This document shows, in pieces, positions 2 through 11,844 of a stretch of DNA of 64,000 bases. Within the stretch, counting starts at the first letter, position 1; each line of letters opens with the position of its first letter. The notes beneath the pieces were generated by a model. It did no database searches. It was given only the letters and a program-made list of their open reading frames with translations, and was not told the DNA's origin. A program made the position numbers and the translations under genes. This stretch comes from a virus: positions 122,315 to 186,314 of IMG/VR virus record IMGVR_UViG_3300017963_007659; one strand, 5' to 3'.

Positions 2-2581
2 GGGATCATCGACACAGCAAAGATTCTCGCGGAGCTGTTCTCCCGTGGGGCTGGCGTCGGGACCTACCTCTCCTCTCTGCGTCCTCGCTTCGCCTACGTG
101 AAGGGTGTCAACGGACGCTCTTCCGGGGCTGTGAGCTGGGGGTCTCTGTACTCGCATCTCACGGGGCTCATTGAGCAAGGAGGCTGCGTCACTGGAGAGA
201 CTCTTGTAGCTACGTCTAAGGGTGATTTTCCAATCAAGAATCTTGTAGGAACGACACCAGACGTCTATTCTTATGACTGCTCCACAGAAAGGACTGTGCT
301 CAAAACAGCGAAGTGGGTGGGTAAGACCGGGGATAGTCAAAGAATCCTACGACTTACGACAACCCAGGGTCTTATTCTTGAAGCTACTCCTGACCATCTC
401 ATCCTGTGTGCTGACAAAAAGTATCGTCCTCTACAAGAATTGGAGGTAGGGACGGCACTGAATGTCGAGAGTGCTTCTATCCACCATGTCCAATCCGTAG
501 AAGACTGTGGGGAAGAAGACGTTTACGATCTCGAAGTCCCTGATACTCACAATTTCTTTGTATTCTCGAAGGGTTGTAAAGAGGGTGTCTTCATACACAA
601 CTCCCGTCGCGGTGCCGCAATGCTCGTTCTACACGTCTGGCACCCGGATGTGTACGAGTTCATTGAGTGCAAGAGGGAGCCCAAAGCTAAGCAGCTCGCT
701 CTCCTGGCTGACAAGCTCGAATACGGCTTTGGTCTCACGGAGTTCGCTCAAGAAGCCAGAGATCTCGCGGGGCAATGGCCAGCTCACATCCAGCACGCCA
801 ATCTCTCGGTTGGAATCACAGACGATTTCATGGAAGCTGTTATTCACGATCGGGACTGGCAGCTCGTCTTTCCTGATACGACAGTTCCGGAGTACACAGA
901 GAAGTGGGATGGGGACCTCAAGAAGTGGCAAGAGGAAGGTCATCCAATCAAAGTCCACAAGGTAGTCAAGGCGCGCGACCTGTGGAACAAGCTCATGTAC
1001 TCCGCGTGGGACTCGGCTGAGCCGGGAGTCATCTACATCGATACGGTCAACAGTGAGAGTACCTCATGGTGGTACTGCAACATGCTGGCGACGAACCCTT
1101 GCGGAGAGCAGCCTCTCCCGAGCTGGTACGGTGTCTGTAACCTTGGAGCAATCAATCTCCCTCGCTTCCTCATGGAGGATCCAGACGACCCGAACAAAGT
1201 CATCCTTGACAAGGAAGCCTACAAGAATGCGATCCATGTCTCCATGCGCTTCCTGGACAACGTTATCGACACCACTCCCTACTTCTTCGATGAGCAAGAA
1301 TACAATGCGAAGCGTGAGCGTCGAGTTGGCTTGAGTCCCTTCATGGGGCTTGCCGAAGCTCTGGTCATTCTTGGTATTCGCTATGGGTCTGAGGAGGCGG
1401 TAGACTTCGTGGAGGAGGCTGGCTTGGTCGCGGCTTCAGAGTCCCTCAGAGCCAGCGTGGACCTCGCAGAAGAGAAGGGCTGCTGTGATGTGTTGGCTAC
1501 TCCAGAGGACCGGGAGAAGTTCTTGGAGAGTCTGTATGTGCAACGTATTCTCCGGTATCTGCCTCCAGAGGACAACCAGGACTTGCAGTCACGGATTCGT
1601 GAGCATGGAGCCAGGAACGTGAGCTTCACGACCTCAGCGCCTACCGGGACCATCGGGACCATGGTGGCAACGTCTACCGGAATCGAGCCCTTCTTTCGTT
1701 TCGAGTACCGCCAGAACACCAATCTCGGAACCCATATCAAACGAGAGCGTGTTCTGGATGAATGGTATAGGCAACACGGTGAGAGCGCTGCTGTTCCGGA
1801 TTACTTCGTGAGCGCTGGGGAGCTGACTCCAAAAGAGCACCTCGTCATGACTGCTGCGCTCCAGCGGTGGATTGACTCAGGTATCAGTAAGACCTACAAC
1901 CTACCACAGGAGTATACACCAGAGGACATCGGAAAGATCTACATGGAGATCTGGAAACGTCGATGTAAGGGAGGCACGGTCTTCCGTGAAGGGTCTCGTA
2001 CCGTTCAGGTTCTTGAGAGTCTCGACCCCAAGGAGAAGAAGACGTTCGAGATGAGCTTCCCGGAGAAGACTCCTGGACCGCCGAAGGGGGACAAGAAAGA
2101 TGGTTCCACGTGGTCCATCGACTCTCCCTCTGGTACCCTGCACGCTACGTTCAATCAGTATCCGACGCCAGACAACCCCTTCGAGACATTCCTGAGAATT
2201 GGGAAGGCAGGCTCTGATGTTGGAGCTATGACCGAAGCTTTCGGACGTGTCATCTCCCTCTTCCTCCAGATGAGAGGTCCAATCCGGCCCACAAGACGCT
2301 GTGAGCTTCTTGTCGAGCAGCTTGAGGGGATCGGTGGTCGAGACCAGGTTGGCTTCGGTCCAAATAAGATTCGTTCGATCCCTGATGCGATTGCTAAGTC
2401 GATAAGTCGACATTTGCAGTCAATAGTAGGTAGGGACGATGACTTGTCATGCTCAGAAGATGAAGAAGAGAAACCAGCTTCAACTCATGGCTTGGATATG
2501 TGTCCCGAGTGTGGTAATCTCGGATTGCGGTCGGAGGAAGGGTGCACGAGCTGCGCCTTCTGCGGCTATAGCAAATGCTGA
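2..2581 (+). CDS. nrdJ: Class II (B12-dependent) ribonucleotide reductase, 5'-truncated by window edge, with mini-intein and C-terminal TSCPD/Zn-ribbon domain
   Basis: Frame is open from nt 2 (GIIDTAKILAELFSRGAGVG...). Motifs: TNPCGEQPL, CNLGAINL, RRVGL, SAPTGTIG, TSTGIEP, DSGISKTYN; ends CPECG..EEGCTSCAFCGYSKC. Confidence 0.93.
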   Translation, partial: GIIDTAKILAELFSRGAGVGTYLSSLRPRFAYVKGVNGRSSGAVSWGSLYSHLTGLIEQGGCVTGETLVATSKGDFPIKNLVGTTPDVYSYDCSTERTVLKTAKWVGKTGDSQRILRLTTTQGLILEATPDHLILCADKKYRPLQELEVGTALNVESASIHHVQSVEDCGEEDVYDLEVPDTHNFFVFSKGCKEGVFIHNSRRGAAMLVLHVWHPDVYEFIECKREPKAKQLALLADKLEYGFGLTEFAQEARDLAGQWPAHIQHANLSVGITDDFMEAVIHDRDWQLVFPDTTVPEYTEKWDGDLKKWQEEGHPIKVHKVVKARDLWNKLMYSAWDSAEPGVIYIDTVNSESTSWWYCNMLATNPCGEQPLPSWYGVCNLGAINLPRFLMEDPDDPNKVILDKEAYKNAIHVSMRFLDNVIDTTPYFFDEQEYNAKRERRVGLSPFMGLAEALVILGIRYGSEEAVDFVEEAGLVAASESLRASVDLAEEKGCCDVLATPEDREKFLESLYVQRILRYLPPEDNQDLQSRIREHGARNVSFTTSAPTGTIGTMVATSTGIEPFFRFEYRQNTNLGTHIKRERVLDEWYRQHGESAAVPDYFVSAGELTPKEHLVMTAALQRWIDSGISKTYNLPQEYTPEDIGKIYMEIWKRRCKGGTVFREGSRTVQVLESLDPKEKKTFEMSFPEKTPGPPKGDKKDGSTWSIDSPSGTLHATFNQYPTPDNPFETFLRIGKAGSDVGAMTEAFGRVISLFLQMRGPIRPTRRCELLVEQLEGIGGRDQVGFGPNKIRSIPDAIAKSISRHLQSIVGRDDDLSCSEDEEEKPASTHGLDMCPECGNLGLRSEEGCTSCAFCGYSKC
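185..601 (+). mobile_element. Mini-intein (139 aa, no homing endonuclease) in NrdJ
   Basis: QGG|CVTGETLV...VYDLEVPDTHNF...IHN|SRRGA; removal restores the conserved QGGSRRGA motif. Confidence 0.92.
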
Positions 2582-2587
2582 GGTGCT

Positions 2588-2869
2588 ATGAAAGGGAACC
2601 GAATGATTCTGACGTCTTACGAATGGGGTGAGCGCATCGACTACTTCATCCAAGAGGTGGAGAGCAATAGCACTCACCCCGTATCGATGATGGCTGACCT
2701 CGCTTTCTTGTATCGCCACATCGATGGGGAAGTGTTCGAGAGGTCAGAAGAGAACAATGATCGAGTCGACAGGTTGGTGGAGGCGTGCACGGTTGCAGGC
2801 GTCTCCATCGATGGTGTGGCTAAGATTGTGGAACAACAACGGTTTTTTGAAGCTAAGAGGAGAAGCTGA
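2588..2869 (+). CDS. Hypothetical protein
   Basis: 93-aa ORF packed between neighbours, with GAGGT RBS-like sequence upstream. Confidence 0.7.
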   Translation: MKGNRMILTSYEWGERIDYFIQEVESNSTHPVSMMADLAFLYRHIDGEVFERSEENNDRVDRLVEACTVAGVSIDGVAKIVEQQRFFEAKRRS

Positions 2870-3201
2870 TGGGGAAAATAAAGTACGGCAACAAGAAAAG
2901 TCACGGTGGTGCGATGGCAAAAGCCATGGTCGTTGGGATGGAGAAGAGGCATGCTCACGCGCAGACGGCGAAGCGAAAGAGGATCTTCAGTAGATTCATG
3001 AAGACAGAGAAGGGTCGGCAGGTCGCGGCGCAGATTGAAGCTGGAGCCCTCCCTGCCGAGAGCATCGAAGTCGATGGCAACAACATCGAAGTCAAGGCGA
3101 CCGTCAATCCAGAGGTTGCAGAGGACACTTCCTCCGATGAAGGCTCAGAAAACGAGTCAAAGGATCAGGAGGAGGAAGGCGATGAGCGAACGGAAGATTG
3201 A
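2869..3201 (+). CDS. Hypothetical protein (basic N-terminus, acidic C-terminus)
   Basis: Start overlaps the upstream stop (TGATG); phage-like codon use. Confidence 0.7.
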   Translation: MGKIKYGNKKSHGGAMAKAMVVGMEKRHAHAQTAKRKRIFSRFMKTEKGRQVAAQIEAGALPAESIEVDGNNIEVKATVNPEVAEDTSSDEGSENESKDQEEEGDERTED

Positions 3202-3514
3202 CTTCGTTGACGGTGATGTCGTGCTGTTCCTGTCTGGAGGCGTGGCGGTTCGCCGAGATGGTGTGGGGATGTATCGGGTGGATATCCGAGATGAGCCACA
3301 TACCATCCAAATCTACTACCATGCAGGTGTTGGCTTTATCAACATAAACGATAACAGTCGTGACACAAGGATGCGCCTGCTTCTTCCGAGGGGGCTTGGG
3401 TCCAATCTTGAAGACGATATCGTCAGTGCTATGCTGGAGTTGGAGATCCTCTCTCAGATCAACAGCGACAAGGCTCAGAAGGGCAAGCTGCCTGACGGTT
3501 GGGCGAAGAAATGA
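3182..3514 (+). CDS. Hypothetical protein
   Basis: ATG at 3182 after GGAGG; in frame with track ORF 3035..3514. Confidence 0.65.
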   Translation: MSERKIDFVDGDVVLFLSGGVAVRRDGVGMYRVDIRDEPHTIQIYYHAGVGFININDNSRDTRMRLLLPRGLGSNLEDDIVSAMLELEILSQINSDKAQKGKLPDGWAKK

Positions 3515-3651
3515 CCTCTTCCAACGAGAAGTCCTATCGTGCCGTTGAGATGGCTAAGGTGTCTGCGCGCTATCGTCTCCGACTCGTCCGTAAGGTCATT
3601 GAAAAGCTAGACAAGAAAGCCTCAAGTAGAACCTCCGTTTCCGCACACTAA
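3511..3651 (+). CDS. Small hypothetical protein (46 aa), not in ORF track
   Basis: ATGA overlap with upstream stop; MTSSNEKSYRAVEMAK...SAH. Confidence 0.4.
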   Translation: MTSSNEKSYRAVEMAKVSARYRLRLVRKVIEKLDKKASSRTSVSAH

Positions 3652-3721
3652 CACCTCCTACGTTACTATGCGGTTCCACTGTTATCGAAATCCAGTCAAA
3701 GTACAGTAAGTGAGAAGACAG

Positions 3722-4201
3722 ATGGCAAACAAAGAGGAAGAGCTGTACTACATTCAGGACACACGCAGTGTGGTAGGAGACTGCGTTCTGTGGTGGGGTC
3801 CAGACGGCAATGGCTACACCCTCAATATCGAAAGGGCTGGCCTATACACCTACAAGCAGGCGTCGAGCCATCGGGAAACCGACGTTCCTTGGCCAAAGTC
3901 CATGGTCGACAGCCTCATCTCTTCTCATGTGCATATCGACAGCTTGAGAACGGTTCCCACAGTTGAGGTCAAGCGGTGGAAAGGCGATTGGTACAAAACC
4001 ACACACCAGGTCGTCCGGACAACGGAAACGCAGATCCTCATTTCGTGCGGACAGCGAGAGGAGCGCTACAGTCGAAAGACGGGACGTCGCGTCGGAGCTT
4101 CCAAGCAAGGACTCCGGAGCGCGAGACTCCCGCGCATCGAAAAGAGAGAACTCAAGTGGCTTGAGTCGAGGCTCACGAACACGTGGAACAAAAAACGCTG
4201 A
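3722..4201 (+). CDS. Phage hypothetical protein
   Basis: ORF (YYIQDTRSVVGDCVLWWGPDGNGYT) preceded by the AGTCAAAGTA motif at 3694. Confidence 0.7.
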   Translation: MANKEEELYYIQDTRSVVGDCVLWWGPDGNGYTLNIERAGLYTYKQASSHRETDVPWPKSMVDSLISSHVHIDSLRTVPTVEVKRWKGDWYKTTHQVVRTTETQILISCGQREERYSRKTGRRVGASKQGLRSARLPRIEKRELKWLESRLTNTWNKKR

Positions 4202-4247
4202 AGTTTTGAGAGCAATTCTCAAAGAAAGGTAGTCAAAGTATATTGTC

Positions 4248-5429
4248 ATGAAGGTTTATCGCTCGACACGCTGTACCTTGAAGTACACCAATCCACACAA
4301 GCTGGACATCTTGTCTGAGATTATAGACGAGTACGGCAGGGTGGTGCGGTTGTACATCGACTTGTTCTGGGAAAAGTCGCGATACCTTCATAATAATGAC
4401 CTCTTGAAGCCTGTCATCGAATCAATCCCTCCGACGTGGCTGGGATATAAATTCAAAAGGGACGCGGCTCGTGAGGCTCTGCGAAACATCCGGTCTATAA
4501 CGAATAGACCAGGGACGCCACAAAAGAAGCCGAACTATAAAGGGCGGTCAATGACTCTCCATTTTGACACCGCCTATCTGACGGACTCCAAAAAGACAGA
4601 TTCTTTTGACGCCTGGTTTAGATTGCGTGGAGTTGGGAAGTATTCGGATACAGGAGAGGGGATATGCATCGCTTTTCCTATAAAATTCCACAAGCATTTC
4701 AATCAATTGAGCGCCAAAGGAAGGCGCGTCAATACTATCCATGTCTATCGGGACTCAGTACAATTCATCTTTGAACTTGAGACCGGGGAGAAGAGGACCA
4801 AGGGCAAGCAGGTCGGAGTCTACACAAATGGGGAGACTCTTGCCACTATCTCCGATGGCACGAAGTACGGTACGGACATCGGACGCTATGTCGATCGTGT
4901 ACAAAGATGCGTGCCTGGGTCAAAGGGCCACAGGAAGGCGCAGCGAGCGCTCAAACAGCGTCTGAATGAAGTAGTCAAAGAAATTGGGCGTAAGCATGTC
5001 AAGCTCTTTGTGCTTGAGCGTGCCAAACCCAAGAAGGATGCGATAGGCGGACGTTGCTCGCCAGAAAACAAGCAACGATCTCTCGGTATCTGGGCATACA
5101 CCTACTGGTTGGAGAGGTTTCATAGAGAGTGTGAGATGAGACGTTCTCGCTTTCGCTCTACCGCTCCTGTATATACCAAGACGTGTTGTTCAGCATGTGG
5201 AAGTACCGAGAGGAGTAATCTGTCCGGTGAAACGTTCCTGTGTACCACATGTGGTCATAGGAGCAAAGCAGCAGTGAACGTTGCTCAAAACACTTTGGAC
5301 AGGTATCTCTCTGGACCCTACGGTGCCAGATTCAAACCCGGACGCTCTGGAAAACGAGGTCAGGGAACGGTATTTGTACAATCGCCTATCTCTCAAAAAC
5401 AGGGATCGACGAAAGGACTACAAGAATGA
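4248..5429 (+). CDS. TnpB-like protein with inactivated RuvC (TldR-like, nuclease-dead)
   Basis: TnpB layout with CCSAC/CTTC zinc finger and GPYGARFKP tail. RuvC-I reads VGVYTN (D to Y), RuvC-II VLE retains E, RuvC-III reads KAAVNVAQN (D to A). Confidence 0.8.
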   Translation: MKVYRSTRCTLKYTNPHKLDILSEIIDEYGRVVRLYIDLFWEKSRYLHNNDLLKPVIESIPPTWLGYKFKRDAAREALRNIRSITNRPGTPQKKPNYKGRSMTLHFDTAYLTDSKKTDSFDAWFRLRGVGKYSDTGEGICIAFPIKFHKHFNQLSAKGRRVNTIHVYRDSVQFIFELETGEKRTKGKQVGVYTNGETLATISDGTKYGTDIGRYVDRVQRCVPGSKGHRKAQRALKQRLNEVVKEIGRKHVKLFVLERAKPKKDAIGGRCSPENKQRSLGIWAYTYWLERFHRECEMRRSRFRSTAPVYTKTCCSACGSTERSNLSGETFLCTTCGHRSKAAVNVAQNTLDRYLSGPYGARFKPGRSGKRGQGTVFVQSPISQKQGSTKGLQE

Positions 5430-5773
5430 CCTACTGTTGTCCTCTATGTGACCTGGAGATCACCAAGGACCGTCCGTACTGTAGCAACATGTACTGCACC
5501 GTCGGCTACTACAACTGTCTATCCATGAACTGTCTATCCATGCCAGATGCTCCAGACATGGAGGATGTCGACAATCCTCTGGATAAACGGGAAGCTCTCA
5601 ATCGAAAGCAGGGTTCCTATTTTGGAGTGGATGCGGCTTCTCAGTGGCTACTGGAGAGAGCAGCATATTCTTTCACGAAGAATCAGGATGACACAGCGCG
5701 CACTCTCAGGGAGGCAGCTACCCTGATGCGTGACTCCAAGAAGGATATCCTCGCAGACTCGAACGAAGGGTAA
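5426..5773 (+). CDS. Hypothetical protein with N-terminal Cys cluster
   Basis: ATGA overlap; CCPLC...YCSNMYC. Confidence 0.65.
   Translation: MTYCCPLCDLEITKDRPYCSNMYCTVGYYNCLSMNCLSMPDAPDMEDVDNPLDKREALNRKQGSYFGVDAASQWLLERAAYSFTKNQDDTARTLREAATLMRDSKKDILADSNEG
5513..5542 (+). repeat. Perfect 15-nt tandem duplication (NCLSM x2)
   Basis: AACTGTCTATCCATG twice. Confidence 0.95.
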
Positions 5774-5829
5774 GTCCTCGGTTATTGTGATTTAGGGGCA
5801 TTTTACGCCTCTGGACACAACGAGGCTTC

Positions 5830-6846
5830 ATGGTTGCTACCAAACCACCGGACTACATCTACAAGGATATTCCCCGATCCACCGCTGAAGCTGTTCAGAA
5901 CAACGCCTATGAGGAGTCCCTCGTCCTCGTCAAGTCCGCCATCCAGCACTACCTTAATCAGTTTTTCGATTCAGATGGGAAGTATCGAAGACTTGTAGAG
6001 TCTGTGTGCCCAACTGTAGGACAATTCGTTACAGACGTTCGTGTCCCTCGGCCTGGAGAATACGAAGACCCAACAAAGTACAAAATTCAGATCGCTCGGA
6101 TGTGGCAAGGTCTCAAGCAGCGTCTTCCTTGCATCGTCATTGCGGAGACTGGCTGGACTCGTCAGAACTCTCTGAGTGACATCTCGGGTGGTATCTCCGT
6201 GCCGGGGACCGATGGGCTCCAGCACTCTCCGTTGTGGCTCAGCAACTTCCTCATGGGGAGCATCGATATTCTTGTAGGGGCGTTGGATGAACATACGACA
6301 GGGCAGATAACTTCCCAACTTATCAATATCTTTGGGCCTTTGAAGGAGTTCACCAAAGAGACAATCTTGAAGCCGACGACACCTACAGGTGGGTCAACCT
6401 GGGAAGTTCGGCTTCCGATGAATCAAACCATCAGCTCCAGAGAGCGAATCAACATCGGAGATGACCCTGTCTCGTCGCTGTGGTCGGCTACGCTGTCCTT
6501 GGATGACGTCCACTTCGAGGGGTCAACACCTCTCGATATGGAGGCTGCTGTTCCGACGGAGCCCGATTATGGTCCGAATACCCCTGTAGACAGCGATGAC
6601 TTCCCTGACACCACAATCGTTGTTTCCTCTCCGGTTAAGTTGGGGAGAGCCCAACCATTCCGTGTAGTTAACGAACGCTACAGCGCCGTCATCTACAGCG
6701 ACAATCCCCGTGTGGCACTGATACGGGGCTACACCATCATCCCTAGGAAAGTTGGTACATTTAATATAGTCGTGGCTAATGGTAATAGTGTTGGTCTTGA
6801 GGCCGACATCTTTGCAAAGCAAGAGGTGTCTGTGGCACTTATATAG
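5830..6846 (+). CDS. Putative virion structural protein (tail completion/terminator-like) with C-terminal Ig-like segment; last 29 codons supplied by the TnpB element
   Basis: 338-aa ORF just upstream of the sheath gene, preceded by a GGTTAT motif at 5780. Function is inferred from context only. Confidence 0.55.
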   Translation: MVATKPPDYIYKDIPRSTAEAVQNNAYEESLVLVKSAIQHYLNQFFDSDGKYRRLVESVCPTVGQFVTDVRVPRPGEYEDPTKYKIQIARMWQGLKQRLPCIVIAETGWTRQNSLSDISGGISVPGTDGLQHSPLWLSNFLMGSIDILVGALDEHTTGQITSQLINIFGPLKEFTKETILKPTTPTGGSTWEVRLPMNQTISSRERINIGDDPVSSLWSATLSLDDVHFEGSTPLDMEAAVPTEPDYGPNTPVDSDDFPDTTIVVSSPVKLGRAQPFRVVNERYSAVIYSDNPRVALIRGYTIIPRKVGTFNIVVANGNSVGLEADIFAKQEVSVALI

Positions 6847-8088
6847 CTCAGAGAGGGTTAGATAGCTAGTAGGCGCATAGAGCAGCAATCACATAGAAAT
6901 TTAATGTTTGTGGCACATAAAATAGCGTTATCTCCTACCCCAGATCAGGAGACGTACTTCAGGAAAGCAGCAGGTACAGCGCGCTTCGCTTATAATTGGG
7001 CTTTAGACCAATGGGTATCTCTTTACCGATTGGGAGAAAAGCCAAGTGAAGCTATGATCCGAAAAAACTTAAACAAGATCAAGTATATTGAATTCCCTTG
7101 GATGAAAGACGTTTCAAAAACGGTACCACAACAATCGATTAAAAATCTGGGAAAGGCTTTCAACAACTTTTTCAATAAGCGTGCTAAATACCCGAAATAT
7201 AAGAAACTTGGGAGGCATGACGCATTCCGTGCGGATAATGGTCCTCAAACTAAAGGAGCCGATGCGGTCCAGGTTAATGGAAAATCAGTCGGCATACCAA
7301 AACTCGGCTGGGTACGAATGCGAGAAGCGCTTCGTTTTGAAGGCCAAATAAAGTCCGCTACGATCTCACGAAGAGCCCAGCGGTGGTACATCAGTTTTTT
7401 GGTTGATAGCCCGCTTTGCTCCTTCCAGCGCGAAAACCAAGCAGTTGGAGGAGTAGACCTTGGTCTTCGTTGGATGGCTGTTACAAGCGATGGTGTCTTC
7501 TATGAGAATCCGAAGCCGCTGAAAGCTAACTTGAGGAAGCTTAAGAGACTACAGCGACAACTTCGCAACAAGAAGAAGGGGTCGAACAGACGGACGCGAC
7601 TCCAACATCGGATCGCGGAGCTTCATGTGAGAATCGCTGATATCAGAAAAGATGCTCTGCATAAGGCGACGACATCCTTGGTTAGAGATTACTCTACAAT
7701 TGTTATCGAAGACCTAAATGTAGTGGGGATGCTGAAGAATCGTTATCTCTCCAGAGCTGTCTCGGATGTGGGATTGTACGAATTCCGTCGTCAACTTGAG
7801 TACAAAGCGAAGTGGTATGGGACAAAAGTCCTCTTAGCAGATCGTTGGTTCCCTTCCAGCAAACTCTGTTCGTGTTGTGGCTATAAGTACTCAGAACTAA
7901 AGCTTGGAATGGAATCGTGGGTGTGTCCTGTCTGTAAGACAGAGCATGATAGAGACCGGAACGCAGCTATCAATCTACGGGAAGTTCTCCCGGAAGTTAC
8001 GCACGTGGAGACCACGTCCTCTACTTCTCTAGCTGGACTAGAGAAGCAAGGCAGGTCGATGAAGCGTGAACTTGTTGAAAGAGAACGG
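6756..8088 (+). mobile_element. Non-autonomous TnpB element (1333 bp, no TnpA), IS607-like GG junctions, carrying a recoded host-gene 3' end
   Basis: Left junction GTTGG|TACATTT, right junction GAGAACGG|TACTTTT. GG-to-GG removal restores an intact 338-codon gene. The element is visibly more AT-rich than its flanks. Confidence 0.85.
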
Positions 8089-8097
8089 TACTTTTAA
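6904..8097 (+). CDS. tnpB: RNA-guided endonuclease TnpB, catalytic triad intact
   Basis: N-terminal HTH (AGTARFAYNWAL), GGVDLG, VIEDLNV, WFPSSKLCSCC...CPVC, HDRDRNAAIN. Confidence 0.95.
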   Translation: MFVAHKIALSPTPDQETYFRKAAGTARFAYNWALDQWVSLYRLGEKPSEAMIRKNLNKIKYIEFPWMKDVSKTVPQQSIKNLGKAFNNFFNKRAKYPKYKKLGRHDAFRADNGPQTKGADAVQVNGKSVGIPKLGWVRMREALRFEGQIKSATISRRAQRWYISFLVDSPLCSFQRENQAVGGVDLGLRWMAVTSDGVFYENPKPLKANLRKLKRLQRQLRNKKKGSNRRTRLQHRIAELHVRIADIRKDALHKATTSLVRDYSTIVIEDLNVVGMLKNRYLSRAVSDVGLYEFRRQLEYKAKWYGTKVLLADRWFPSSKLCSCCGYKYSELKLGMESWVCPVCKTEHDRDRNAAINLREVLPEVTHVETTSSTSLAGLEKQGRSMKRELVERERYF

Positions 8098-8108
8098 CAT
8101 AGTGGTTG
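7985..8108 (+). ncRNA. Predicted TnpB omegaRNA 3' scaffold plus about 20-nt guide (guide begins 8089); 5' boundary approximate
   Basis: Hairpins ACGTGG/CCACGT (8003-8017) and CTTCTCTAG/CTAGAGAAG (8024-8046); long-range AAGTT-ACGC/GCGT-AACTT pairing; ends at GAGAACGG. The guide is placed by the known TnpB rule (sequence 3' of the right end). Confidence 0.7.
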
Positions 8109-8179
8109 CTGATGGCAACTCCACAGGGCTCGAAGCTAGAATTTTTGCAACTCAGGAAGTCTCTGTATCTCTCATATGA
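8089..8179 (+). pseudogene. Displaced original 3' end (29 codons plus stop) of the 5830..6846 gene
   Basis: Reads TFNIVVADGNSTGLEARIFATQEVSVSLI* versus TFNIVVANGNSVGLEADIFAKQEVSVALI* at 6756..6846; both are 91 nt. Confidence 0.92.
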
Positions 8180-8283
8180 TCTGGTCGCACGGATGCGTCT
8201 TATAAAGACGACCTCTCTAGAGCGAGGTTATCTTTAGACGATATCGATGAAATTGACCAAATAAGAACGGAGCGTTCAGAACC

Positions 8284-11200
8284 ATGGCTGACGTCTTAGT
8301 CACATCACAATATGTGCTCCCAGGTTCGTACCTAGGAAGAATCTACACACCCAACGCCGGAACGCTGTCGGGCGACCCAAGACAACCCTGTTACGTTGGG
8401 AAGGGTAGTCGACTTGCGACCGCAGCGAACGTTCCGATCCGCCGTGCGTTTTTGCAGGGAGAGGTCATCCCCTTCCCGCAGACGGTGCCGCACTTGGTAA
8501 CTCTTGCGCACCCATCGGATGGCGACCAGACGTTGGCAACGATGACTACACAGTCGGGGGCTGTCATTCCAGCCTCGAAGTGGCAGTTCCAGAAGTCCGC
8601 TCCCGGTATCACAGGATACGACCAAATTCTGCTGTTGCCGGAAGCCTTCAACTCCACCTCGACCTACACTCTCGACTACCAGACCATCGACCGAGATGTT
8701 GTCGATGATGTCCCGTTTGACGAGATGCGTCAAATGGTTAGAGTAGGCGACTACCAGGACCAGGATTTCTACTCCGAGCAGGTGGACTACCGCGTTATCA
8801 CCTCCAATACGGATCCAGTTCCGGACCCGACGGTGGCGAACGCGACGACTACGCTGTTCACTCCTGTTCAGCAGACGGCTACGGGTGGTGGTGCTCCGAC
8901 TCCGACGGTCAATGTTGGTGCCACCTACACAGGGCAGCACAACAGGCACTATCGCTTTGAGGCGGTTGGGCTCGCACCGCTGACCTTCTTGGTGGACATC
9001 ACCAACGAGGGTGGCGGCAACAACCTGACTCCGGACTATCCGGTAGGTCCGAACATCAGCGGGCTGACCTTCCCGGTCGCTATCGCGGGTGCTTACGACC
9101 TCGACTCTCAGATGGGGCTCACCTCTCTTGGTGTGCTAGTCGACCTCGACCCGGCTGACCCTGGTGTCTGGGCTGTTGGTGACGTTTTTGAGTTCAACGC
9201 GCTTGGACCGTCCGTCATCGAATTGGACCCAACCTACGACAACACCAACCAGTTCTCTTCGGTTTCTGCCCTCACAGCAGCGGCTGGAAATGGTGGAACT
9301 GGTACAGTGACACTGAACCCCAATACGGACTTCACGGGATCGACGAACAAAGATGTGCGCATCGAATGTGCCTCCTTTGCTGGTCTGTCTCCGAACCGAA
9401 CCGCTCTCTTCGATTGGCAGACCTACGGGGCTGATGCGATTGAGAAGGGATCGATTCTTGTAGATGAGTCTGTCGCGGGGAACCTGATCAACCGAACGGT
9501 AGCCGATGGAATCTCTGTCGACTTCGACTTCGGCACGGATGCTGGTGGAAACAGCGCGAACTTCGTTTTTGCGGCTGGTATCATCACCTTCGATGCGGGT
9601 ACAGGTACCTTCACTCCTAGCATGGTTGGTCGGCAGATCACCATCGTTGGAGCCACTACCCCTGCGAATGATGGTACCTTCGTCATCGCTTCCTATATCT
9701 CTCCAACACAAATCACCTACGCCAACGCTCTTGGTGTAACCGAGGTTGGAGCAGGTACCTGGGTTGTGGAAGGTTTCTTCGTTCCGACCTCAGCGACGAC
9801 ACAGGGCGACCTCTTCACGACGGCTGCTACTGCCCCCATGCTCTATTACACGGGTAAGGACGACCGAGAGTACACTCTGGAGGTCACAGCAGCTACGTCT
9901 ACTCCGTTCACCGCAGTGACTGGTGTTGCGATTGCTCCAACGAATACGTTCGACGTCGCAACGGATCTCACGACAGCCATCGCGCTTCATCCGAACATTC
10001 GGGTCGAAGGTTCGACGGGCAACGACAATCTCTATACGGTCCAGTCCACCTCCTACGATTCTGGAACGGACACCACGACTATCACCACAGTCGAGAACGT
10101 CCCGAATGCCGTAGCAGATGGAAACCTCTGGTACGGAACAGGCGCAGCGTCCATCTTCTGGTCGACAGCTACTCCTGAAGGTGGTTTCGGTACCCTTTCT
10201 CTGTTGGATAACGACACGGCTTCACCGCTCGCCGATGAGATCAAGTTCTATGTCCGAAACTCTGGAAATCCGCTGCTTCGCTCGGATGCTCAGAATCAGA
10301 GAAACGTCATCGCAGACGTCTGGACCTTCACGGTTACGAATGAGGATGAGATCTCTTGGACGCTCGCAGCGCGCGAGACGGAGACCATCGCTGTAGCGGA
10401 CCTTCGACAAGATACCACGGGTTCCATCACAGGAGCTTCTGGTGGCGTTCCTGGCACGCGTTACCTCATCCTTGAGCAAACTCCTACGATCCAGCCTCTT
10501 CGAGTGTGGACGACCAACCCGACGACCAGTGTCACCACTGAGCTGACGGTTGCAACGACACCTCCCTATGTCGCTGGTTCGGACGCCTACTGGATCACCG
10601 GGACACCGTACATCTTCTTCCCGACGACTCCGACTGAGCCTGTCTCGGTCACCTACCAGCACAGAGCGTTGGAGCCGGATCCTGGACAGGTCTACTACAT
10701 CACGTCGTACTACCTGCGACCCCTCAACTTCTACAACAACCCGATTCGGTTGCTGAACGAAGACGAGGCGATCTCGGTTCTCGGTCCCATGGACCCCGAG
10801 AACGACCTTCTCATCATGGCTCTCGTTGCCCTGGTGGACTGCAACGCCTTCGCTGTTTGGGTCACGCAGGTTCGAGACACAGACGATGACGGTGTGTATA
10901 CCACATACGACTACAACACGGCTATTGAAGCCACAGAGCTGAATGACCAACTCACGGACATCACAGTTCTACAGAACTTCGATTCGCTGTCCAAGCTGAA
11001 GACGTCTGTCATCCAGATGAACGACCCCTTCGAGCGGAAGCAGCGTCTGTGCTGGGTTGGAGCCCCCATTGGGACAGAGATTGGCGATACCGACACTCCG
11101 GACACTTTGGTCTACTTGGCCAAGAGAACGCTCCAGGTGTACGGTGAGAGCCCCGCGCACGGTGCCTTCATTCTTGTAGGCAACACGGTGTGTGAGCGCA

Positions 11201-11844
11201 CCATTGAGCTGGCTGAAGGGACTCAGACCACTGTCACCCTTGACGGAAGCTTCGTGGCGGGTGCTGCGGCTGCTCTTGTCGCCTCCTACACTGATCCTGG
11301 TGAGACCATTCTCCGAAAGGACCAGCCAGGGTTCGACCGTATCGGTGGAACGACCATCGATATTCAGTACGAGGAGAAGGAACTCAAGCTGCTTGGTGCG
11401 GCGGGTGCAAGTACCTTGAATGAGGTTGGCTCCGGTATCTACCAGTGGGTTGAGGACATCACCGTAGACACATTCGCCCAAGATACTCAGCAGATCAACG
11501 CGATGACCCAGAAGCAATTCGTCGAGCGTTACGTCCGAAGTCGGATGGACACCTCGATTACGGGTATCGTGGCTCCGTCTGCTCAGGCGGGTGTCGCCAT
11601 CGTCAAGGGCTTCCTGGTTGAGCTGCTTCGCTCACTGGCAAGTCGGGGTATCATCGGTGCGTGGACGGATGACTCTGGGAATGAGCGAGACATCGATCCT
11701 CAGAACGATGTTGAAGTATTCCGGGATGATACGGACCGAACGTTGTACCACTACAAGTTCTGGTTCAACATTCGGTACCCAATCAAGCGGACCTTCGGTC
11801 TCTACTCCGTCGACTCTCGTTCCTTCACACCGCTCGCTGCCTAG
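8284..11844 (+). CDS. Contractile tail sheath protein (1186 aa) with large beta-rich insertions
   Basis: N-terminal YVLPGSY...YVGKG; C-terminal sheath core (DITVD...INAMTQKQFV...LYHYKFWFNIRYPIKR); tail tube gene nearby. Confidence 0.88.
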   Translation: MADVLVTSQYVLPGSYLGRIYTPNAGTLSGDPRQPCYVGKGSRLATAANVPIRRAFLQGEVIPFPQTVPHLVTLAHPSDGDQTLATMTTQSGAVIPASKWQFQKSAPGITGYDQILLLPEAFNSTSTYTLDYQTIDRDVVDDVPFDEMRQMVRVGDYQDQDFYSEQVDYRVITSNTDPVPDPTVANATTTLFTPVQQTATGGGAPTPTVNVGATYTGQHNRHYRFEAVGLAPLTFLVDITNEGGGNNLTPDYPVGPNISGLTFPVAIAGAYDLDSQMGLTSLGVLVDLDPADPGVWAVGDVFEFNALGPSVIELDPTYDNTNQFSSVSALTAAAGNGGTGTVTLNPNTDFTGSTNKDVRIECASFAGLSPNRTALFDWQTYGADAIEKGSILVDESVAGNLINRTVADGISVDFDFGTDAGGNSANFVFAAGIITFDAGTGTFTPSMVGRQITIVGATTPANDGTFVIASYISPTQITYANALGVTEVGAGTWVVEGFFVPTSATTQGDLFTTAATAPMLYYTGKDDREYTLEVTAATSTPFTAVTGVAIAPTNTFDVATDLTTAIALHPNIRVEGSTGNDNLYTVQSTSYDSGTDTTTITTVENVPNAVADGNLWYGTGAASIFWSTATPEGGFGTLSLLDNDTASPLADEIKFYVRNSGNPLLRSDAQNQRNVIADVWTFTVTNEDEISWTLAARETETIAVADLRQDTTGSITGASGGVPGTRYLILEQTPTIQPLRVWTTNPTTSVTTELTVATTPPYVAGSDAYWITGTPYIFFPTTPTEPVSVTYQHRALEPDPGQVYYITSYYLRPLNFYNNPIRLLNEDEAISVLGPMDPENDLLIMALVALVDCNAFAVWVTQVRDTDDDGVYTTYDYNTAIEATELNDQLTDITVLQNFDSLSKLKTSVIQMNDPFERKQRLCWVGAPIGTEIGDTDTPDTLVYLAKRTLQVYGESPAHGAFILVGNTVCERTIELAEGTQTTVTLDGSFVAGAAAALVASYTDPGETILRKDQPGFDRIGGTTIDIQYEEKELKLLGAAGASTLNEVGSGIYQWVEDITVDTFAQDTQQINAMTQKQFVERYVRSRMDTSITGIVAPSAQAGVAIVKGFLVELLRSLASRGIIGAWTDDSGNERDIDPQNDVEVFRDDTDRTLYHYKFWFNIRYPIKRTFGLYSVDSRSFTPLAA

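Follow-up and report, generated by a model that had tools for sequence, protein, structure and literature searches.

A TnpB element inside a phage gene brings a second gene end and may act as a guide-resistant homing cassette

Introduction

How can a gene for an RNA-guided nuclease sit inside the coding sequence of a phage gene and leave that gene open? The question is raised by a 64,000-nucleotide (nt) stretch of viral DNA (positions 122,315–186,314 of the IMG/VR record IMGVR_UViG_3300017963_007659; hereafter the window, in whose own coordinates positions are given), where a gene of 338 amino acids (aa) is interrupted near its 3′ end by a cassette encoding TnpB. The cassette begins with a diverged version of the end of this gene, and the end that it displaced lies directly behind it. 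We consider it probable, without being confident, that this is a natural TnpB homing or exclusion cassette with a guide-resistant spare gene end.

TnpB is the ancestor of Cas12; in nature, it is known for retaining or re-installing the transposon that encodes it. One known way for such an element to occupy a gene is the IStron, a group I intron fused to an IS605 or IS607 element, which splices out of the mRNA. An earlier reading of the letters of the window (the original prediction) described a different arrangement: an element that enters a structural gene harmlessly by supplying a functional C-terminus and that spreads between co-infecting phages by cutting the uninterrupted allele.

Results

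Two versions of one gene end flank tnpB

The interrupted open reading frame (ORF) occupies 5830–6846 on the plus strand, as do all features described below. Its body, comprising codons 1–308 and the GG of Gly309 (5830–6755), encodes a product predicted to be tail-tube-like, with a C-terminal immunoglobulin (Ig)-like domain. The insert of 1333 nt (6756–8088) starts after the GG of Gly309 (6754–6755). Two tails of 91 nt each follow the common GG(T) in the same frame: tail1 (6756–6846), 29 codons and a TAG stop in frame with the gene body, encodes TFNIVVANGNSVGLEADIFAKQEVSVALI; tail2 (8089–8179), 29 codons and a TGA stop, is severed from the gene body and encodes TFNIVVADGNSTGLEARIFATQEVSVSLI. 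The tails share 24 of 29 residues and 59 of 91 bases, and 17 of the 24 conserved residues are written with a different codon, including an AGT/TCC pair for serine. Joining 6755 to 8089 yields an open gene of 338 aa. All of this had been part of the original prediction, and direct reading confirms its coordinates, lengths, identities, codon swaps, stop codons and GG-to-GG restoration.

A spacer of 57 nt (6847–6903), which may hold a left-end remnant, is all the room between the tail1 stop and tnpB. An Rfam scan of 3500–9000 returned neither a group I intron nor any other Rfam family, and neither a serine TnpA (PF00239) nor a Y1 TnpA (PF01797) is encoded in the 186-kb record, which represents about 50% of the genome. 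The statement that the element has no TnpA and no room for an intron therefore holds. The tnpB gene itself (6904–8097) encodes 397 aa, is apparently intact, and has its TAA stop 7 nt past the right-end junction.

The likeness of the two flanks was scored by comparing the 600 nt 5′ of tnpB with the 500 nt 3′ of it. The best local protein alignment scored 118, against a maximum of 61 with a reversed flank at 78 loci. The tails differ at 30 positions in 87 nt, 21 of which are third codon positions. In 200,000 trials that each placed 30 random substitutions in 87 nt, at least 24 of the 29 residues were never preserved, the mean being 11.5. This third-position excess, together with the failure of random sets to keep the protein, indicates that both tails evolved as translated sequence, under selection at the protein level. 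Judged by their sequences, both are functional alleles, and the lineages they come from are at least as distant from each other as these phage genera. Recoding of tail1 and its import from a diverged allele would look the same. Tail2 runs through its 29 codons without a stop or a frameshift, so that its displacement is presumably recent or renewed. The same arrangement, with identical gene order and proteins, is present on seven contigs from separate assemblies (ENA, Logan and IMG/VR).

The displaced tail resembles the single tail of empty relatives

A protein index search with the host protein returned six relatives (P0002–P0007; 34–80% identical). Loci from five relatives (L003, L004, L006–L008, L009 and L010) are empty, each with one tail and no tnpB. 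Four empty loci carry the gene followed within about 100–130 nt by a homologue of the 1186-aa gene that lies at 8284–11844 in the window; in L010, several small genes separate the two. Every alignable relative is closer to tail2 than to tail1: tail2 matches L003 at 74 of 93 nt and L006 at 68 of 93 nt, whereas tail1 matches the relatives and tail2 at just 59–61 of 93 nt (59 of 93 for L003). A blastn alignment of the window with L003 ends 27 nt into tail1 and restarts exactly at 8087, from where it continues through a conserved intergenic motif and the next gene. This motif, GGTTATCTTTAGACGATA (8226–8243), stands in the native intergenic region (8180–8283) 5′ of the gene of about 1180 aa and is common to the window and to the empty L003, L006 and L009, which puts tail2 in its resident context. 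The motif itself may be a promoter or a regulatory site.

Since tail2 is closer to the empty relatives and the L003 alignment restarts at 8087, tail2 is to all appearance the resident end, and tail1 arrived with the insert. The original prediction had expected empty alleles to end in the tail2 version, and this is what the five tnpB-less relatives show. None of them carries both copies, which it had named as the mark of ordinary duplication, and their single tails support its claim that the element supplies a C-terminus and displaces the native one.

The relatives were found only through the protein index: public phage records gave no DNA match to the locus, and viral contigs searched with the host protein gave no match. 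On both sides of the element the relatives are 65–75% identical, and no co-conversion tract is visible.

The cassette is best read as a TnpA-less derivative of an IS607-type element

TnpB is the sole ORF of the cassette, which encodes no LAGLIDADG or GIY-YIG endonuclease. The product matches HTH_OrfB_IS605, OrfB_IS605 and Cas12f1-like TNB above the Pfam cut-offs, and it matches ISDra2 TnpB (8EXA/8H1J) with a phmmer E value of 2.4e-65. The D/E/D triad of the RuvC domain is kept, with GVDLG, VIEDLN and HDRDRNAA aligning with the catalytic motifs of ISDra2 TnpB.

The closest cellular TnpB relatives are about 50% identical, and paired copies define their boundaries. IS607 copies in Sulfobacillus read flank/GGGTTTTAACAG...CAGAACGG/flank, and the right end of the L011/L095 pair is ...GGAGCGG. 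These cellular relatives (L096/L099 and L011) encode a 209-aa protein with a MerR helix-turn-helix and a resolvase domain, the serine TnpA of IS607. The window junctions are GTTGG/TAC on the left and GAGAACGG/TAC on the right, with the GG core at both. The terminal AGAACGG of the right end matches the relatives with known boundaries, and the right end therefore lies where the original prediction had placed it. Its remark that IS607-type elements insert at GG also fits, in that the nearest cellular relatives are IS607 elements ending in ...AGAACGG.

An IS200/IS605 element of the ISDra2 type was considered and rejected: there is no Y1 TnpA, the junction GTTGG is not TA-rich, and the relatives carry a serine TnpA. 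As a serine TnpA is absent from the record, the insert appears to be a non-autonomous derivative and not a complete IS607. In our best reading, the cassette derives from an IS607-type TnpB/omega-RNA element and lacks the TnpA.

Within the spacer, GGGTTAGATA (6855–6864) is weakly similar to GGGGTTAGTTA, with which the left end of the IS607 relative L011 begins (p about 0.06); the similarity of the 57-nt spacer to native intergenic regions is not significant. A second weak resemblance links the native target GGTACTTTTAACA (8087–8100) to GGGTTTTAACA, at the start of the left end in the Sulfobacillus IS607 relative (p about 0.04). The native target may thus be a pseudo-site for a serine TnpA, and the spacer match a left-end remnant.

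The displaced tail supplies a candidate guide

A predicted omega-RNA scaffold overlaps the 3′ end of tnpB (7975–8088, its 5′ limit being uncertain) and ends in GAGAACGG (8081–8088). In an alignment with five IS607-type relatives, compensatory changes preserve one hairpin and one long-range helix; the scaffold has no Rfam match. By its position directly 3′ of the scaffold end, and on the model of TnpB biology (PMC10690162), the sequence TACTTTTAACATAGTGGTTG (8089–8108), which forms the first 20 nt of tail2, would be the guide. It is unique in the 186-kb record, even at 3 mismatches.

In the IS607 IStron CboIStron, a GG is strictly needed, the target-adjacent motif (TAM) is TGGG, the scaffold ends in UCGG, and the element avoids itself via position −3 (PMC10690162). 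The left junction of the window, TTGG, and its scaffold end, ACGG, fit this self/non-self logic at position −3. The predicted TAM is the left-junction motif GTTGG (6751–6755), which ends in the GG core and is likewise GTTGG in the empty L003 and L006. An empty allele would read GTTGG followed by the guide sequence. The occupied allele reads GTTGG followed by tail1, which mismatches the predicted guide at positions 4, 10, 16 and 19, and these mismatches would be expected to block cleavage.

The layout recurs at other viral TnpB loci

The same scan was applied to 142 viral TnpB loci in 78 distinct clusters and to 72 cellular TnpB loci in 50 clusters. The layout was found at four further viral sites, namely in Bacillus cereus-group phages, in the L082 family, at L194 and at L036. 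That other TnpB loci would share it had been foreseen, and two of these sites have their own empty alleles. No coding duplication was found around tnpB among the 72 cellular loci.

At the Bacillus site, in L076, the last 54 codons of a 126-aa gene are duplicated (41 of 57 aa including the stop, 109 of 171 nt), and the displaced copy begins directly after the scaffold end GGTTCAA. The public phages LY4 and Waukesha92 are empty alleles with the displaced-type tail, and the occupied alleles IEBH, L076 and L074 all share the functional tail1 type. The displaced tail is whole in L076, reduced to 17 aa in L074 and absent from IEBH, and IEBH resembles a plain insertion just behind the stop codon. TTAT precedes the start of the duplication in all Bacillus alleles. 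Over its 20 positions, the L076 guide has 3 mismatches to the empty alleles and 8 to tail1. In these phages, TnpB is accompanied by a small antisense gene of the ribbon-helix-helix (Arc-like) type. The IEBH locus (L091) comprises gp72–gp74 of NC_011167 and the LY4 locus (L094) spans 7403–8783. Between IEBH and L076, the Arc-like gene and the host-gene tail are 93% identical and the TnpBs only about 33%, which implies a swap of the nuclease module.

In the L082 family, the orientation is reversed: the gene is encoded on the other strand, and what is duplicated is its 5′ head including the start codon. Three empty relatives (L181–L185) have heads nearer to the displaced copy, and the region has no match in public phages. 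At L194, the last 24 codons of a different gene, of 70 aa, are duplicated; its TnpB, which is internally broken, shares 69% identity with the L082 protein. L036 is a weak example, with a duplication of 17 aa whose displaced copy begins about 25 nt past the scaffold end. The orientation is the same at all five sites, the window among them: the left-end side carries the gene body, and the guide side carries the displaced piece. The layout occurs with G-rich and TA-rich junction motifs and in both gene orientations.

Several other loci flagged in the survey were set aside. L020, L105 and L216 carry a duplication of the wrong kind, a 75-nt direct repeat with 87% nt identity (2881–2955 and 4167–4241 in L020 and L105), and L205/L240 have a perfect 48-nt direct repeat on either side of tnpB (2695–2742 and 4061–4108); both kinds of repeat are probably end structures of those insertion sequences. 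The repeats at L052/L215, L038, L037/L243 and L071/L072 (the same as L198/L199) are gapped, stop-filled and AT-rich. At L246, full-length paralogous Cys-rich genes (RWLCRC..CG...TSCGCK) flank tnpB on the opposite strand (2318–2635 and 4160–4486), and neither copy is truncated.

The interrupted gene is probably structural

The host protein has no Pfam or PHROGs match. A structure model built from seven homologues (mean predicted local distance difference test score 64; 80–90 in the C-terminal domain) comprises an N-domain of the alpha/beta type and, C-terminally, a beta-sandwich. Its best matches in the PDB are the lambda tail tube protein gpV (8IYD, 7T4F), tail terminators and the Ig-like domain of gpV (2L04), with template-modelling scores that are low (0.2–0.3) because the protein has two domains. 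In the model, the 29 replaced codons form the last two strands of the Ig-like domain. A tail-tube-like structural gene is reasonably supported by these matches, in line with the structural gene of the original prediction.

Discussion

A possible homing mechanism

We propose that the cassette consists of a foreign, synonymously saturated tail1 allele, the 57-nt spacer, and a tnpB gene whose 3′ end would serve as omega-RNA scaffold. The untranslated tail2 adjoins it, and by position its first 16–20 nt would form the guide. The TnpB–omega-RNA complex would then cut uninterrupted alleles, which read GTTGG followed by tail2 sequence, in co-infecting relatives. Tail1 would escape through its mismatches at guide positions 4 and 10 (and also 16 and 19), and the right-end junction would escape because it offers ACGG instead of the TAM. 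Repair from the occupied genome would copy the cassette in, a form of non-restorative homing, or the rival genome would be lost. The replacement tail would let the element occupy a coding region without an intron. As to origin, one may speculate that a diverged phage had an element directly behind its copy of the gene, and that a TnpA mobilised it with the GG site of that gene taken as the left end. Spread of IS605 elements among plasmids that depends on TnpB and not on TnpA has been reported (review PMC13565253).

The same strategy may be general. We would put just short of an even chance on a guide-resistant spare copy being a convergent solution of TnpB elements inside viral coding regions, used by IS607-type elements with G-rich TAMs and IS605-type elements with TA-rich TAMs, replacing 3′ tails or 5′ heads, with the severed native piece as guide template. 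Such elements would amount to RNA-guided home-and-rescue drives of natural origin, for which co-infection is the occasion both to spread and to exclude rivals.

A number of observations weigh against this interpretation of the window. The last, guide-proximal stem-loop seen in the related omega-RNAs is missing here, and folded as a single sequence the RNA does not outperform shuffles (z −0.45), so that it could be defective. The TAM is deduced from the left junction, and both the cutting of the empty allele and the spread of the cassette are deduced from anatomy. Neither the TAM-plus-guide 25-mer, the guide-spanning 23-mer nor the tail1 23-mer occurs anywhere else in the viral or metagenome collections searched, from which close kin of the window's record may be missing. 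A second lineage with this element was not found, the nearest TnpB being 57% identical; the host protein is alone in its 90% cluster, so that no empty allele of this lineage is in the sample. In the Bacillus phages, tail1 and the antisense Arc-like gene are 93% identical between IEBH and L076, whereas the TnpBs are only about 33% identical; the modules have therefore been reshuffled by recombination, and the term element-borne is not clean. The contrast between viral and cellular loci (6 of 79 against 0 of 50 clusters, p about 0.05) is suggestive only. Finally, the Ig-like domain of a tube protein, as in lambda gpV, may be dispensable, which would make rescue less important.

Many of these points would suit an inert recombination scar, the strongest of the alternatives, although we think it unlikely. 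Here, illegitimate or homeologous exchange would have fused the gene end of a diverged phage, with an IS607-type element just behind that gene, to the resident end; TnpB would be a passenger, perhaps unguided, and the duplication purposeless. Phage genomes are mosaics, and the pairing of one Bacillus tail1/Arc module with two different TnpBs, the insertion-like state of IEBH behind its stop codon, the missing stem-loop, the broken TnpB of L194 and the absence of documented spread (no second lineage, and empty exact searches) could all be read in this way. A scar has more difficulty with the position of the copies, which are in exact register at a common GG that is also the IS607 core, and with a right end that abuts the first base of the displaced tail. 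Nor would it readily account for the same geometry at five independent sites with both motif types and both gene orientations, for a tnpB that is intact with its catalytic triad, or for a displaced tail that has not decayed.

A less probable alternative accepts the anatomy of the homing cassette and sees in it an exclusion weapon only, in which TnpB, with the orphan tail kept as its fixed spacer, would destroy co-infecting relatives that have the tail2 allele, and copying would be rare or irrelevant. Intron endonucleases are known to mediate interference between co-infecting phages (in work cited in PMC13565253), and the arrangement, identical on seven contigs, looks fixed. Against this, when a co-infecting homologous genome is broken, the intact one normally serves as the template for repair, so that copying would be hard to avoid, and the presence of the same Bacillus tail1 type in several phage backgrounds points to transfer.

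Ordinary tandem duplication of the gene end, with an insertion sequence landing later, is very improbable. It would explain two copies in direct order with equal length and frame. Yet no tnpB-less relative has two copies, and third positions differ at 21 of 29 codons between the tails, near saturation, compared with only 10 between tail2 and L003. The copies thus predate the split of these phages, yet one lineage has both, and an untranslated copy could not have stayed open for so long. A chimeric assembly of two strains, conceivable because the source is a metagenomic viral contig, can be set aside almost entirely, since seven independently assembled contigs from different samples and assemblers agree in gene order and proteins, a unique tnpB of 1.3 kb separates the copies, and isolate-derived Bacillus prophage records show the same layout.

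Relation to known systems

The closest parallel to the proposed homing cassette comes from fungal mitochondria. In Allomyces and Glomus, mobile ORFs (mORFs) consist of LAGLIDADG or GIY-YIG genes with a foreign C-terminus of atp6, atp9, cox2 or nad3, and they home by cutting empty alleles (PMC3630166). As in the window, the nuclease gene lies near the 3′ end of the host gene, the foreign C-terminus is used in frame, and the native C-terminus is displaced downstream and is nearer to relatives. The copies are 63.5% identical in nt in Glomus atp6 and 65% here, with mostly synonymous differences. The mORF nuclease differs in reading DNA by protein contacts, whereas the specificity of TnpB would come from the displaced tail via the omega-RNA, and the mORF host is an organelle and not a phage. 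The cassette would work like a mORF but is not a member of the class, as it lacks a protein-only endonuclease.

With IS607 TnpB/omega-RNA systems such as CboIStron (PMC10690162), the cassette shares the RuvC triad, a predicted scaffold that runs over the tnpB 3′ end and finishes in ...CGG, the GG core at both junctions, a G-rich pre-target motif, a guide position after the right end and an empty site that equals the predicted target. It differs in having no serine TnpA, no clearly recognisable left end and no intron, and in lying inside a coding region, where a spare gene end compensates at the DNA level. Its homing would take place between co-infecting phages and would not be restoration after excision. 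IStrons solve the same problem, that of a TnpB element inside a gene that must not be killed; in the window, no intron was detected, and it is a diverged duplicate of the end that makes the gene complete.

Synthetic HomeR and cleave-and-rescue drives are engineered Cas9 constructs in insects (PMC7968924). HomeR likewise places an RNA-guided nuclease in the 3′ part of a needed gene, with a guide-resistant recoded 3′ end and a guide against the wild type; the window cassette, a putative drive of this design, is natural and resides in a phage. The free-standing homing endonuclease genes of T4-like phages provide for intronless homing and marker exclusion (PMC13565253). They resemble the proposed cassette in spreading between co-infecting phages with co-conversion of the flanks, and in telling self from non-self by sequence differences in a nearby conserved gene. 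Unlike it, they lie between genes, have no duplicated gene end and rely on recognition by protein.

For the authors of a 2026 review on homing by TnpB, copying into co-infecting phages is a theoretical matter, and the review says nothing of replacement gene ends (PMC13565253). Our literature searches on TnpB with recoding, with gene drive or rescue and with co-infection found no earlier description. The claim that the strategy had not been described thus stands for TnpB, while its principle is not new, since fungal mORFs do the same (PMC3630166). What would be new is a specificity copied from the displaced native piece via the omega-RNA, with the spare end doubling as an immune allele.

Together with the four other sites, the window suggests a second viral lifestyle of TnpB, in which TnpA-free cassettes enter coding sequence with a guide-resistant spare end. 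If this is true, it shows natural TnpB homing between phage genomes, and it explains orphan gene fragments and hybrid genes beside phage tnpB, including those of long-sequenced Bacillus phages. It would also make guides and TAMs readable straight from gene duplications, and would give phage populations a further route to allele exclusion and mosaicism.

Neighbouring elements

Upstream of the interrupted gene, the window carries a second TnpB-like gene (4248–5429; 393 aa) with an overlapping ORF of 115 aa (5426–5773). Its TNB domain scores 24.6 bits, just below the Pfam cut-off, and no flank duplication was found around it. GVYTN and HRSKAAVN stand in place of GVDxG and HDRDxNAA, and in view of these altered RuvC motifs the protein is probably nuclease-dead. 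The stretch 2568–5822 has no counterpart in the relative L003. The ribonucleotide reductase gene of L003 (L003:204–3872), in turn, contains an extra segment of about 1 kb, identified by Pfam as an intein with HNH, and the ribonucleotide reductase gene of the window (98–2581) is uninterrupted at that site, which makes the intein another polymorphic selfish element in this phage group.

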